Source: an uncultured Ignavibacteria bacterium (GTDB taxonomy: Bacteria > Zixibacteria > MSB-5A5 > DSPP01). From it: DNA of 64,000 nucleotides. Shown here in pieces: positions 2,781-37,810 of this stretch. The position numbers were made by a program, and so were the translations under genes. The stretch covers positions 13,492 to 77,491 of the forward strand of contig CAZSIT010000005.1 in the NCBI GenBank assembly GCA_964607165.1, given 5' to 3'. How positions within the stretch are numbered: position 1 is the stretch's first letter; each line of letters begins with the position of its first letter. The notes under the pieces are model-generated. The model was not told where the DNA came from. It worked only from the letters and a program-made list of their open reading frames with translations, and did no database searches.

Positions 2781-3799
2781 GCGAATACAAAAAAGCGGGC
2801 GTGGACATCGCCTTAGCCGAGCAGGTCAAAAACAAAATCAAACTGCAAGTGGCTTCCACGCGCACGCCGGCGGTTTTGGCGGATGTAGGCGCTTTTGGAG
2901 GGATGTTCGCTTTTCCCAGAGATTATAAGGAACCGGTTTTGGTGGCGACCACCGATGGGGTCGGAACTAAACTGAAAGTGGCAATTACAGCAGGAAGATT
3001 AGATACGGTCGGCGAAGATTTGGTCAACCACTCGGTCAACGACCTTTTGGTTCAGGGAGCGGCGCCGCTTTTCTTTATGGATTATCAGGCCTGGGGAAAG
3101 TTGGATGCCGCCGCCGGAGAAAGTTTGATGGAAGGACTCGTCCGCGGCTGCAAACGGCACAACTGCCCGCTTTTGGGCGGCGAAACGGCGGAGATGCCGG
3201 GATTTTATGCTCCCGGCGAGTTCGACTTGGCCGGTTTTATGGTTGGGATTGTCGAGCGCAAAAAAATTCTGGACGGACGGGCAATTACGGCGGGGGATGT
3301 TTTGATTGGCTTGGCCTCGTCCGGCCTGCACACCAATGGATATTCGCTGGCGCGCAAAGTTTTGCTCGACTCCGGCACGTTCAAGCTGGACAGTTTTTTG
3401 CCGGATTACCGGGCGACTTTGGCGGATGAATTGTTGCGGGTACATCGTTCCTATTTTCACCTCTTGCATCCATTGATTTTGCAGGGAAAACTCTCCGGTT
3501 TGGCGCATATTACCGGCGGGGGAATTCCGGGAAACTTGATTCGCATTCTGCCCTCGGGCGCTACGGCGATTGTCGATACCGGTGCTTGGGAGGTGCCGCC
3601 GATTTTTCGGCTTATACAAAAAGCGGGTGAAGTCGGTAAACAGGAAATGTATCAGGTTTTCAATATGGGAATCGGAATGGTTTGCGTGGTGCCAAAAGAC
3701 AAGGTGGATGACTTCATGCGCGACTTGAAAGGCCGGGAAGAAAAATTCTGGACTATCGGCGAGATTTCGACCGGCAAGCACGAGGTTGTGTTGAAGTGA
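2777..3799 (+). CDS. purM: Phosphoribosylformylglycinamidine cyclo-ligase (AIR synthetase).
   Basis: It aligns over full length to PurM (VGAFGGMF, GGETAEMPG, HITGGG motifs). Its ATG overlaps the upstream stop as ATGA. Confidence 0.92.
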   Translation: MSEYKKAGVDIALAEQVKNKIKLQVASTRTPAVLADVGAFGGMFAFPRDYKEPVLVATTDGVGTKLKVAITAGRLDTVGEDLVNHSVNDLLVQGAAPLFFMDYQAWGKLDAAAGESLMEGLVRGCKRHNCPLLGGETAEMPGFYAPGEFDLAGFMVGIVERKKILDGRAITAGDVLIGLASSGLHTNGYSLARKVLLDSGTFKLDSFLPDYRATLADELLRVHRSYFHLLHPLILQGKLSGLAHITGGGIPGNLIRILPSGATAIVDTGAWEVPPIFRLIQKAGEVGKQEMYQVFNMGIGMVCVVPKDKVDDFMRDLKGREEKFWTIGEISTGKHEVVLK

Positions 3800-31308: not shown

Positions 31309-31361
31309 GGGGCGAATCTTCAGATTCGCCCAAAAGGGTGAACCTAAAGGTTCACCCCTAC
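31309..31361. repeat. REP pair in alternating orientation, as in E. coli BIMEs: GGGGCGAATCTTCAGATTCGCCC then GGGTGAACCTAAAGGTTCACCCCTAC.
   Basis: Two hairpins lie in head-to-head orientation. A near-identical pair is at 37153-37204. Confidence 0.7.
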
Positions 31362-31366
31362 ATTTT

Positions 31367-31470
31367 CCCCTCTTCATTTATGGAGAGGGGTTTGGTGGCG
31401 CACATTGGTTTTTGTAATGTGCGACGGGCACCGAATGCAAAGACCATTCGGTGCCACCGAATAGGGGGTG
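31367..31470. repeat. REP subtype CCCCTCTTCATTTATGGAGAGGGG followed by a compound hairpin (GGCACCGAAT...ATTCGGTGCC).
   Basis: Inverted repeats were read directly in the ftsZ-rpmB intergenic region. Confidence 0.6.
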
Positions 31471-31475
31471 TGCGA

Positions 31476-31700
31476 TTAAGATTCGATGGCGGGTTTGGCT
31501 TTGGGCCGATGCGTAACTTTTAGAACCTTGCCGGCTTTCAGGCAGGAAGAACAGACCTTGATGCGGGTATGCTTGCCGTTAATATTAGCCCGCACCGGAT
31601 GCAGATTGGGGAAAAAGCGCCGGGGGCTCACGTTGTGGGCGTGGCTGACGTTTCTGCCCGTCATAGGTCCTTTTCCGCAAATGTCACATATTTTGGCCAT
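31476..31700 (-). CDS. rpmB: 50S ribosomal protein L28.
   Basis: [33 protein letters not shown] matches bL28. The start was taken at the internal Met of the longer ORF. Confidence 0.85.
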
Positions 31701-31754: not shown

Positions 31755-32366
31755 CTAATCTTCCCGGTGTAATTTCTCTCTCCCAAAATTATTCCAAAAA
31801 TCTTGTTCAATTTTATCCACCTGCCCTCTTGGATTTTCTTGGTCAAATTCCCATCTCAACGGATTATTAAAAATGTATTCCCGAATTTTGTTGAACGCTT
31901 CTTCGTTTCGAATAATGTGTTCGTAATAATTCCGCTGCCACACCGGCAACCCGGGTGTTTTCCGTAATTCGTTTATCCGCTTTGCAGAATTCATTTTGAA
32001 CCATCCGATGATTTTTGGCAATAACATCAATCGCCGCGCCTTCCGTGTTGCTTGTATCGGTTTTTGTAAGGGCAATTCATGAATTGCCCCTACCGTTTCA
32101 TTGATAATGATGATCCCATGCACATGATTCGGCATGACCACGCATTCATCCAATTCTACATTCCGATAACGCCCGGCAATTTGAAACCAAAATTGTTGCG
32201 CAATTTTCCCCTGGGGCGTTAATCTCATTTCTCCATCTACAACATCCCCAAACAGATTTTCTCTATCCTTGGCCAGAATGGTCACATAATACGCACCCTC
32301 CCGCGCATAATCATAATCCTTCAGCCGTATCGACCGCCGATGATGTATATCCGGATTGTACTTCAT
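31755..32366 (-). CDS. rayT: REP-associated tyrosine transposase (RAYT, IS200/IS605-like Y1 HUH family).
   Basis: It carries the HUH motif HVHGIII and a Tyr motif WQRNYYEHIIRNEE...NNPLRW typical of RAYT/TnpA-REP. It lies among REP elements. Confidence 0.8.
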   Translation of the reverse strand: MKYNPDIHHRRSIRLKDYDYAREGAYYVTILAKDRENLFGDVVDGEMRLTPQGKIAQQFWFQIAGRYRNVELDECVVMPNHVHGIIIINETVGAIHELPLQKPIQATRKARRLMLLPKIIGWFKMNSAKRINELRKTPGLPVWQRNYYEHIIRNEEAFNKIREYIFNNPLRWEFDQENPRGQVDKIEQDFWNNFGREKLHRED

Positions 32367-32528
32367 ATCCTGTCCGGATAGTATGAAAAAAGTTCAGGTT
32401 TTTGAAGGGGCGTTGTCGAGCCGCCAATAATGTATTACCCCTACAATTTAGCAGGCTAAAAAAACGCCTTACCTGCGCCACAAGGCTGACTTGTTGACGC
32501 GGTGAGTTGCTCGCTTACGAGATAAAAA

Positions 32529-32553
32529 AGAGGCGGCTCGAAAGGGCCGCCTC
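32529..32553 (-). terminator. Rho-independent terminator (GAGGCGGC-loop-GCCGCCTC, followed by a T-run on the minus strand) downstream of the 32600-33001 gene.
   Basis: A perfect 8-bp GC stem is followed by TTTTTTAT on the minus strand. Confidence 0.5.
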
Positions 32554-32599
32554 TTTTGTTGCTCGGAAAAAAATGTGTTTCTCACATTGAATTTAACCA

Positions 32600-33001: not shown

Positions 33002-33042
33002 AACTGCCTTCCAATACTAATATACGGCAGAATTCAAGAACT

Positions 33043-33070
33043 GTAGGGGTTTGATTAATCAAACCCCTAC
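33043..33070. repeat. REP element: perfect palindrome GTAGGGGTTTGATTAATCAAACCCCTAC.
   Basis: It is a perfect 28-bp palindrome. The stop codon of the AraC-Ogt gene (33059-33061) sits inside it. Confidence 0.8.
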
Positions 33071-33937
33071 AACCTCTTTCCTTCCCGCTTCCCACACCAG
33101 CATCGCCTTCTTTCTTGGCGTGCCCCAGCGGTAGTTGCCGAAGGCGCCGATTTTCTGGATGACCCGGTGGCAGGGGATTAAATAGGCGACGTAGTTATTG
33201 GCCACCGCAGTTCCCACAGCGCGGGAAGCGGCCGGCCGGCCGATGCGCTCGGCAATCTTTTCGTATGAGGCCACACAGCCGGGCGGGATTTTCAAAAGCG
33301 CCTCCCAGACCTTTATCTGGAAATTGGTGCCCTTCAAAAAAAGCTTCATAGGCGTGCCGTTTTGGTTTGTGCCGCCGAAGATTCTTTCCACGTACGGCTT
33401 GGTCGCTTTCCCATTTTCGGCAATCTGGGCGTTGGGCCAATTGGCAGCCAGATATTGCAGGGCCTTTTTGGGATTTTCGTTTTCGATAAAGGAAAGCCCG
33501 CAGATGCCGCGCTCGGTCACAGCTAAAAGGCATTCGCCAAAAGGGGTGGGGTGAATGCCGTAGGAGATTTTCAAACCGGCCCCTTTTTGCTTGTATTCCC
33601 CCGGCGTCATCGCCTCCACGTTCACAAACAAATCGTGCAAACGGCCTGGGCCGGAGAGGCCGGATTCGTAGGCAACATCCAGAACGCTCTCTGATTCCTG
33701 GAGCAGTTTTTTGGCGTAATCAAGGGTCAGAAATTCCAGAAACTTTTTGGGGCTGACGCCGGCCCAACGGGAAAAGAGGCGCTGGAAGTGGAATTCGCTC
33801 AAATGGACACTATTGGCGATTTCCTTTAAGCCGGGCTGGTTGCGGAAGTGTTCTTCCAAATAGCGTATCGCCTGTTCCATCCGAGTGTAGTCGTGGGAGA
33901 GTTTTGCGAAATCGACGGTTTCGACCTGCGTGTTCAT
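33059..33937 (-). CDS. AraC-family HTH / methylated-DNA-[protein]-cysteine S-methyltransferase (Ogt) fusion. It is Ada-like but lacks the N-terminal Zn methylphosphotriester domain.
   Basis: It has an AraC HTH (HLSEFHFQRLF...) and Ogt active-site PCHRV. The start was taken at MNTQ, which has an upstream GGAAGGAAGGAAT RBS. Confidence 0.8.
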   Translation of the reverse strand: MNTQVETVDFAKLSHDYTRMEQAIRYLEEHFRNQPGLKEIANSVHLSEFHFQRLFSRWAGVSPKKFLEFLTLDYAKKLLQESESVLDVAYESGLSGPGRLHDLFVNVEAMTPGEYKQKGAGLKISYGIHPTPFGECLLAVTERGICGLSFIENENPKKALQYLAANWPNAQIAENGKATKPYVERIFGGTNQNGTPMKLFLKGTNFQIKVWEALLKIPPGCVASYEKIAERIGRPAASRAVGTAVANNYVAYLIPCHRVIQKIGAFGNYRWGTPRKKAMLVWEAGRKEVVGV

Positions 33938-34128: not shown

Positions 34129-34224
34129 GGCGAATGCCATTCGCCCCTACGAAAAACCGCCTCACCCCCGACCCCCTCTCCATTCAATGGAGAGGGGGAA
34201 AGGCACGGCGCGCTGTGCCCCTAC
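34129..34224. repeat. REP cluster of three hairpins: GGCGAATGCCATTCGCCCCTAC, CCCCCTCTCCATTCAATGGAGAGGGGG and GGCACGGCGCGCTGTGCCCCTAC.
   Basis: These are inverted repeats with the family's CCCCTAC ends, lying in a divergent intergenic region. Confidence 0.7.
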
Positions 34225-36394: not shown

Positions 36395-37156
36395 TTGAAA
36401 TCCGCTCTTGAATTAGCCAAAAAAGCTTCTTTGAAGGCCGGGGAAGCGGCCTTACGCTATTTTCACGGTGGCGCTAATGTTTCCATCAAATCCGACGGAA
36501 CGCCGGTGACCCAAGCGGATAAAGAGGCGGAAGAAATAATCATCCATGTTCTCAAAAAAGAAATGCCGGACTGTGGGTTTTTAGGAGAAGAATTCGGCGA
36601 GCAAGGCCCAAAGGATAAGCGTTGGATTATAGACCCGATTGACGGGACCAAAAATTTTATACGAGGAATACCGGTCTGGGCGGTGATGATTGGATTGGAG
36701 GAAGGGGGAGAAATTACCGCTGGGGTTGTCTATAATCCTGCAACGAAACAGCTCTGGACGGCGGCAAAAGACTTGGGGGCGTATTACAACGGCGAACGAA
36801 TTTCGATTTCCGCCATCGATTCGCTCGCAAATGCCCAACTGTTGCACAGCGGGTTGAATACGATGCGGAAAAGCAAGTACTGGGATGGGTTCTTACGGCT
36901 GGTAGAATCAACCAAACGCCAACGCGGGCCGGGAGATTTTCTGGGATATACGATGGTGGCGCAGGGACAAGGGGAGATTTATTTGGAGAATGAATTGAAG
37001 CCGTGGGATATTGCCGCAAATCAAATTATCGTAAAAGAAGCCGGCGGAGAGTTTACGGATTTTGAGGGGGGTTCAAGCATTTATTCCGGGTCGGCCTTGG
37101 CGACGAATGGAAAGTTGCATCGGCTGGTTTTGGAGATTCTTCAAGGCCAGACGTAG
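36395..37156 (+). CDS. Inositol monophosphatase family protein (SuhB/HisN-like).
   Basis: It has IMPase motifs (WIIDPIDGT, ...GD...). A TTG start is proposed downstream of the heptad repeat, since the longer ORF from 36350 would be translated through repeat DNA. Confidence 0.75.
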   Translation: MKSALELAKKASLKAGEAALRYFHGGANVSIKSDGTPVTQADKEAEEIIIHVLKKEMPDCGFLGEEFGEQGPKDKRWIIDPIDGTKNFIRGIPVWAVMIGLEEGGEITAGVVYNPATKQLWTAAKDLGAYYNGERISISAIDSLANAQLLHSGLNTMRKSKYWDGFLRLVESTKRQRGPGDFLGYTMVAQGQGEIYLENELKPWDIAANQIIVKEAGGEFTDFEGGSSIYSGSALATNGKLHRLVLEILQGQT

Positions 37157-37204
37157 GGGCGAATCGCCAGATTCGCCCGGGTGAGCCTGAAGGTTCACCC
37201 CTAC
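37153..37204. repeat. REP pair in alternating orientation, as in E. coli BIMEs: GTAGGGGCGAATCGCCAGATTCGCCC then GGGTGAGCCTGAAGGTTCACCCCTAC.
   Basis: This is the second copy of the two-hairpin unit seen at 31309-31361. Confidence 0.7.
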
Positions 37205-37785: not shown

Positions 37786-37810
37786 GGGCGAACACGAGGT
37801 TCGCCCCTAC
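37786..37810. repeat. REP: GGGCGAACACGAGGTTCGCCCCTAC.
   Basis: It is almost identical to the REP at 1673-1700. Confidence 0.7.

Follow-up and report, generated by a model that had tools for sequence, protein, structure and literature searches.

REPs are among the most abundant repeats of bacteria. Where the gene of a RAYT, a REP-associated tyrosine transposase, has its own type of substrate within the reading frame, it provides a natural handle on the question of how RAYTs maintain REPs. Exactly this intragenic arrangement has been described by Quentin, Siguier, Chandler and Fichant (2018; BMC Genomics 19:475; PMC6006769) for subclass 2.4, identical with Group 4 of the RAYTs in Bertels et al. 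(2017). The subclass comprises 124 sequences, the median length being 194 aa, and its members carry the motifs NH[IFV]H, WQ and YIxNNP (Table 1 of that paper); the class 2 signature is Y---NP, and YIxNNP is that of the subclass. The median distance between HuH and Y is 88 aa in subclass 2.4, compared with 58-67 in most subclasses, and this enlargement is due to a variable insertion between beta3 and alphaC. The subclass is further marked by 8 additional residues where alphaB ends, and the core is followed by no conserved domain. The REPs of the subclass are of the 'long' or 'double foot' type, with a 5' GT[AG]G, three G-C pairs at the base of the stem and a 3' C[TC]AC. A REP lying in frame between HuH and Y is a unique feature of subclass 2.4, and Table S1 gives GTAGGGGCAATTCATGAATTGCCCCTAC as a double-foot REP of a subclass 2.4 gene of Chlorobium chlorochromatii (ABB27827.1). 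The insert in the loop was seen as peripheral, with 'little impact on protein activity' (PMC6006769). Di Nocera et al. (2013; PMC3733652) reported intragenic REPs only in non-RAYT genes, and intragenic REPs in RAYT genes go unmentioned in Nunvar 2010, Ton-Hoang 2012 and Bertels 2017. A text search of the literature for the encoded peptides and for REP-within-RAYT phrases returned nothing relevant, and the arrangement was found described only in Quentin et al. 2018.

The gene considered here occupies positions 31755-32366 on the minus strand of the window (the whole stretch of DNA that was analysed, 64 kb). It comes from an uncultured organism (metagenome sample 3300010391), whereas subclass 2.4 has mainly been described in Cyanobacteria and Bacteroidetes. 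A preliminary description, made from the letters of the sequence, had proposed a RAYT gene at this place; the reading frame is present as claimed, with an ATG start and 203 codons, and the identity of its product as a RAYT-type Y1/HUH transposase is borne out by Pfam, Foldseek and all three subclass 2.4 motifs. The 203-aa protein scores 28.7 bits with Pfam Y1_Tnp (PF01797; gathering cutoff 23), and Pfam finds no further domain in it beyond Y1_Tnp. With the NCBIfam equivalog NF047646 (REP_Tyr_transpos) it reaches 61.2 bits, under the curated cutoff of 80, in a match that is split in two by a loop; going by these scores, the protein is related to the NF047646 family yet falls below the equivalog threshold. 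An AlphaFold2 model built from 35 homologues has a mean pLDDT of 83.5 and a pTM of 0.79, and Foldseek matched this model to the ISDra2 TnpA, to E. coli TnpA-REP in complex with a REP hairpin (4ER8), and to the IS200 and IS608 transposases with E~1e-6. More than 8000 homologues are found in the protein database. The same protein is also present in independent JGI and Logan (SRR6155509) assemblies, so the palindrome within its gene is unlikely to be an assembly artefact.

The HVH that had been noted in the protein was found at residues 81-83, as part of the HuH motif NHVH (N80-H83; 32118-32129, minus strand), which conforms to the subclass 2.4 pattern NH[IFV]H. N80 and H81 are invariant and H83 is near-invariant in alignment A1. 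The tyrosine motif had been placed in NYYEHIIRN, and this assignment was mistaken: the stretch WQRNYYEHIIR (W143-R153; 31908-31940, minus strand) aligns instead to W94-R104 of E. coli TnpA-REP (4ER8), the part of that enzyme that recognises GTAG, and is predicted to recognise the GTAG foot. In the profile alignment, W143, Q144, E149, H150 and R153 fall on E. coli W94, Q95, E100, H101 and R104, which are reported as GTAG-binding residues (PMC6006769), and all five are invariant or near-invariant in alignment A1. Since the same profile alignment puts YIFNNP (164-169; 31860-31877, minus strand) on Y115-P120 of 4ER8, the catalytic tyrosine is Y164, with N168 and P169 completing the motif. Y164, I165 and N168 are invariant in alignment A1.

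All the subclass 2.4 features that were examined in the window protein are present. It has the motifs NHVH, W143-Q144 and YIFNNP and a length of 203 aa against the median of 194, and the spacing of 83 aa between H81 and Y164 is enlarged through a variable beta3-alphaC insertion. A REP at 32066-32093 lies between the codons of H83 and Y164 with the frame left open; it is of the double-foot type, the GTAG-binding residues are conserved in the gene, and on the sense strand the REP is one base from the published GTAGGGGCAATTCATGAATTGCCCCTAC. The locus departs from the subclass in its surroundings, as cognate REPs are found neither in the flanks of the gene nor in the rest of the 64 kb, and in one foot of its REP, which is degenerate (GTAA).

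E. coli TnpA-REP (subclass 2.2; 4ER8) shares the Y1/HUH fold (Foldseek E = 1.2e-6), and its GTAG-recognition residues W, Q, E, H and R and its catalytic Y---NP align with those of the window protein. In the profile alignment with 4ER8, however, the end of the HUH segment (residue 66) and W94 are about 25 residues apart in the E. coli protein, whereas about 55 residues separate the equivalent points, 88 and 143, in the window protein. The E. coli enzyme is also extended at its C-terminus, where it has a Ser motif (PMC6006769), and E. coli REPs differ in having a single foot and a bulged stem, with no REP inside the E. coli gene. The TnpA proteins of IS200/IS605 (subclass 1.1) are alike in fold and in HUH/Tyr chemistry, and their substrates are ssDNA hairpins; they have Y---Q where the window protein has Y---NP, and the window gene, a single copy in the window, lacks subterminal IS ends and tnpB. 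Other intragenic REPs and the Rickettsia palindromic elements (RPEs) resemble the present case in being palindromic repeats that coding sequences accommodate in frame, presumably where the protein is flexible. Those elements, though, are sporadic, vary in site and lie in genes that have no connection with REP mobilisation, whereas in the family of the window gene the host is the presumed enzyme of the REP, the site is constant and most members carry the element.

The palindrome that the preliminary description had reported within the coding sequence was confirmed at 32066-32093, where the plus strand reads GTAAGGGCAATTCATGAATTGCCCCTAC. Written about its centre, this strand is made up of the halves GTAAGGGCAATTCA and TGAATTGCCCCTAC. 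The arms GGGCAATTCA and TGAATTGCCC form a perfect 20-bp palindrome, which is the core of a 28-bp palindrome; over the full 28 bp there is one mismatch, A.C on the plus strand, which becomes a G.U wobble in the mRNA. The sense (minus) strand reads GTAGGGGCAATTCATGAATTGCCCTTAC and has the layout GTAG-GGGC...GCCC-TTAC, with a canonical 5' foot and a 3' foot that is one base off, so that the foot of the other strand is the degenerate GTAA. The palindrome itself, the homologous loci and the published consensus all point to an intragenic 'double-foot' GTAG REP that encodes V92-L100, the codons of 32067-32093 (minus strand) spelling VGAIHELPL. Allowing up to three mismatches, the 20-mer occurs once in the 64-kb window against 0.01 times expected, which is more than chance would give. 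There are 13 copies of the octamer GTAGGGGC, where 1.3 would be expected, and most of these octamers are in intergenic palindromes of the same architecture with other cores. The sense RNA of the palindrome is predicted to form a 12-bp stem of -17.2 kcal/mol (z = -4.7), and as DNA the palindrome forms a weaker hairpin than this on either strand. The reading of the palindrome as an intrinsic terminator was rejected because no U/T-tract follows the hairpin 3' on either strand.

The segment of the protein that hosts the REP is a variable beta3-alphaC loop (N89-M114; 32025-32102, minus strand) that is predicted to be disordered from the AlphaFold2 model and alignment A1. In the model, residues 89-114 are a coil that links the HUH strand (81-88) to the helix that follows (115-135), and pLDDT drops below 50 at residues 96-102 and 104-111. 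Length variation in alignment A1 is confined to the region of this loop. Since the loop is disordered and remote from the catalytic centre, the enzyme tolerates the insert. The DNA element is primary here, and the VGAIHELPL peptide is its by-product.

Two outcomes had been named as fatal to the idea of an in-frame REP, namely that homologous RAYTs share the same residues without the palindromic DNA, and that the palindrome is absent in close relatives. We therefore set the gene beside DNA from 160 homologous loci, drawn from genomes and metagenomes of many phyla. Among these and the window locus, 147 loci have recognisable HUH and WQ motifs, and in 124 of the 147 a palindrome lies between the two motifs, just past the HUH strand, which disposes of the second outcome. 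All but three of these palindromes (121 of the 124) have the form GTAGGGGC-N12/13-GCCCCTAC, and the homologues' palindromes comprise 58 distinct cores, all self-complementary. The reading phases 0, 1 and 2 are represented 87, 34 and 0 times: phase 0 encodes VGAxxxxPL (87 cases), phase 1 encodes (G/R)RGxxxxAPT (34 cases), and phase 2 is absent because the TAG of the foot would become an in-frame stop. The palindromic DNA thus persists where the residues differ, with 58 cores in two phases, and is therefore not a coincidence of codon choice. Strong palindromes reach 4.09 per kb in the loop, compared with 0.09 in the rest of the coding sequence and 0.21 in the flanks.

Conservation of the element is found at the level of DNA. 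In 51 distinct 28-mers, 95.9% of stem positions are paired, against 40-47% with slid partners, and 113 double (compensatory) changes are concentrated in four core pairs; the sequences counted were chosen as palindromes, and these figures measure compensation rather than existence, for which third-codon-position identity and the density of palindromes per kb serve as independent controls. The GTAG/CTAC feet and the GGGC base of the stem are at least 90% conserved in alignment A2. In the 11 loci with the AATTCATGAATT core, third codon positions are 90.5% identical within the palindrome, compared with 42.5% in the HUH motif and 45.7% in the WQ motif of the same 11 genes, motifs that are 60-70% identical in protein. 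In the 35 closest homologues, VGAIHE[LS]PL is nearly invariant and at the same position, V92, G93, A94, I95, H96, E97 and P99 each being at least 90% conserved. Both the GTAA...CTAC and the GTAG...TTAC variants are found among the homologues in alignment A2; a strand asymmetry of the degenerate foot was considered and rejected, as this alignment has no consistent bias.

A detectable internal palindrome is missing in 23 of the 147 relatives, and the internal copy is therefore not indispensable. The segment is not simply absent from most of these relatives, since the distances between HuH and WQ overlap in distribution, with medians of 64 and 67 in relatives with and without a palindrome, respectively. 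Most of those that lack a palindrome probably carry decayed inserts, as in locus L024, and a few short loops of 44-54 aa appear to be free of an insert. Some other relatives have modified the element. In L037 (about 3031-3080), L082 and L146, the right half-arm and foot of the intragenic REP are tandemly duplicated in frame as units of 15 nt (e.g. ...ATGAATTGCCCCTAC ATGAATTGCCCCTAC), the boundaries of which coincide with the centre of the palindrome and the foot; the resulting proteins (P0027, P0049 and P0057) have HELPL/HESPI peptide repeats and a longer loop. A peptide of the VGAIHESPL type also recurs at the N-terminus of P0091 and at the C-terminus of P0004, P0005 and P0065, where the annotated ORFs extend through flanking REPs; these extensions probably reflect start codons that were called wrongly, or read-through of REPs overlapping the ends of the genes.

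The internal copies resemble the REPs that lie around the same genes. Of 113 loci, 49 have an external palindrome that agrees with the internal core to within one mismatch in 12-13 nt, whereas pairing each gene with the flanks of another locus chosen at random gave a mean of 3.1 matches and a maximum of 10 in 1000 permutations. The match lies within 300 bp of the gene in 41 of the 49 loci, and the median distance between gene and core-matching external palindrome, which can be on either side, is 87 bp. Identical palindromes are also found in the non-coding flanks of homologous loci. P0037 (locus L161), a paralogue from the same metagenome sample, has two internal palindromes, and a copy of one of them is located about 150 bp upstream of its start. 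Genes with the same core are also more similar in protein (0.59 versus 0.52; permutation maximum 0.55). A GTAG palindrome within 300 bp was detected at 45 of 90 loci with an internal REP and at 4 of 26 without (Fisher p = 0.0016), a comparison that is supportive only, being made with a crude regular expression by which a few variant feet (e.g. L004, L012) were put in the wrong class.

At the window locus itself, a search with the 20-mer core, allowing up to three mismatches, found no second AATTCATGAATT-core REP elsewhere in the 64 kb, and the nearest GTAG-type palindromes, at 33042-33071 and 31310-31357, have other cores. Since its flanks lack the same core, the window gene is not in a classical REPtron, in which a RAYT gene has its own REPs on its flanks at distances of up to about 1 kb. 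A degenerate GGGGCG...CCCCTAC remnant is present at 32408-32444 (CCCCTAC at 32438), about 45-80 bp upstream of the RAYT start, and may be a decayed flanking REP.

Taken together, the gene is very probably a subclass 2.4 TnpA-REP/RAYT gene, the coding sequence of which holds an in-frame copy of the REP type of its own subclass. The preliminary description had left a choice between a REP accommodated in frame and an internal copy of the enzyme's own substrate; a REP in frame, of the RAYT's own substrate type, is supported by the survey and by the catalogued consensus one base off. By analogy with E. coli TnpA-REP, the enzyme would bind GTAG-footed REP hairpins on ssDNA, and would cleave and rejoin REPs by means of Y164 and a metal bound by the HUH residues. 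REPs of this type populate intergenic DNA, including that of this window, and the copy in the loop is inherited together with the RAYT gene. As the conserved feet, the compensated core and the match with the flanks in many genomes show, this copy is kept recognisable as a REP across the homologues, which implies that it may be maintained by ongoing homogenisation or renewed insertion through the RAYT/REP system, or else by selection. Whatever effect the internal REP has on the protein or its expression is probably minor, and the feedback on expression or recombination that the preliminary description proposed is speculative.

It can be asked whether the peptide rather than the DNA is what has been conserved, VGAIHELPL being a functional protein motif that happens to be palindromic through a coincidence of codon choice. 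The conservation of V92, G93, A94, I95, H96, E97 and P99 in the 35 closest homologues (at least 90%) is what such a motif would lead one to expect. However, the same DNA architecture encodes unrelated peptides elsewhere, such as (G/R)RGxxxxAPT in phase 1, with 58 cores overall; synonymous positions are 90% identical inside the palindrome and about 44% outside it; the segment is predicted to be disordered; and identical palindromes lie in non-coding flanks. An explanation at the level of the peptide is rejected by the differing phases and cores and by the third-position identity, and we give it practically no credence. It is also improbable, if somewhat less so, that the palindrome is a generic mRNA hairpin, that is, a translational pause, an RNase target or a stabiliser unrelated to recognition by the RAYT. 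The 12-bp stem of the sense RNA, at -17.2 kcal/mol (z = -4.7), would suit such a role, and effects of REPs on translation and on the fate of mRNAs are known (work cited in PMC6006769), but the features most conserved are the GTAG/CTAC feet and the GGGC base, which are features of RAYT recognition and not of stem stability. Moreover, the core co-varies with the flanking REPs, and no U-tract follows the hairpin.

More serious is the proposal that selection acts on the internal REP as a cis-element, and that it is not just a passenger which the gene tolerates; this reading we consider rather unlikely. As a master copy, the internal REP would guarantee that REP and RAYT are inherited together and could reseed or re-homogenise the REP family, for instance after horizontal transfer. 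As an autoregulatory site, it would be bound or cleaved by the RAYT in its own gene (as ssDNA) or as an mRNA hairpin, limiting the enzyme's own expression. Several observations fit a selected element: 84% of relatives carry the internal REP, confined to one loop; its DNA is much more strongly conserved across phyla than are synonymous sites in other parts of the gene; the internal copy matches the flanking REPs; a flanking GTAG palindrome is commoner where an internal REP is present (45/90 against 4/26, by the crude classifier); and in this window the internal copy is the sole one of its core type in 64 kb, as expected of a master copy. Against these stand the 16% of relatives without an internal REP, the lack of a consistent strand asymmetry in the canonical foot (alignment A2) and the published view of the loop as peripheral to activity (PMC6006769), which our data do not contradict; turnover through the REP/RAYT machinery would also suffice to yield the same patterns. 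If selection does act on the internal REP, it would explain three features: the retention of a perfect REP of the cognate type, always at the one position, in 84% of subclass 2.4 genes, the freezing of its synonymous sites across phyla, and the lack of a second copy of its type in this window.

Nothing categorically new is to be learned from this locus alone, as both the arrangement and a REP differing by one base have already been published. The survey nevertheless adds weight to the view that the internal copy is actively maintained as a REP and is not drifting, a point that the published paper leaves open; the added weight comes from the two phases, the 58 compensated cores, the frozen synonymous sites and the matches with the flanks. 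The results also carry a warning for annotators: VGAIHELPL and GRGxxxxAPT look like conserved peptides but are REPs in translation.

The window contains other repeats. Intergenic GTAG-type palindromes are found at 1481-1508, 1675-1696, 31310-31357, 33042-33071, 37157-37178 and 37786-37806. Clusters with GTAGGGGC...GCCCCTAC feet and different cores lie at 1481-1903, 31310-31357, 33042-33071, 34129-34150, 34195-34224, 37153-37204 and 37786-37810. A second RAYT that might own these other REP cores was sought in the window by tblastn, and none was found. The RAYT genes of L016 (Zixibacteria SM23_73_2) and L069 have an intragenic REP with exactly the sequence of the palindrome at 1481-1508, GTAGGGGCGTATTGCAATACGCCCCTAC, and this identity suggests that more RAYT paralogues, with other specificities, are present in this genome. 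A second, unrelated palindromic family, CCCCTCTCCATT(N)AATGGAGAGGGG, occurs at 2033-2057, 34172-34198, 31367-31390 and 1528-1576, and also in L161 at 2722-2744; its copies are scattered among the GTAG REPs, within the very intergenic clusters that these form. Segments like TTCGGCTACGCTCAGG(A/G)CAAGC recur beside both palindrome families, and with them the two families look like composite mosaic repeat arrays.

Downstream of the RAYT gene and in the same orientation is the gene for ribosomal protein L28 (rpmB; 31476-31700, minus strand), the called product of which matches Pfam Ribosomal_L28. The two genes are 54 bp apart if L28 starts with MAKICDICG at 31700, the JGI call for L28 starting 90 nt after the RAYT stop. 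Upstream of the RAYT gene, at 32526-32557, lies the terminator-like hairpin of the preceding gene. Because of the 54-bp spacing on the same strand and of this hairpin, the RAYT gene may be co-transcribed with rpmB.
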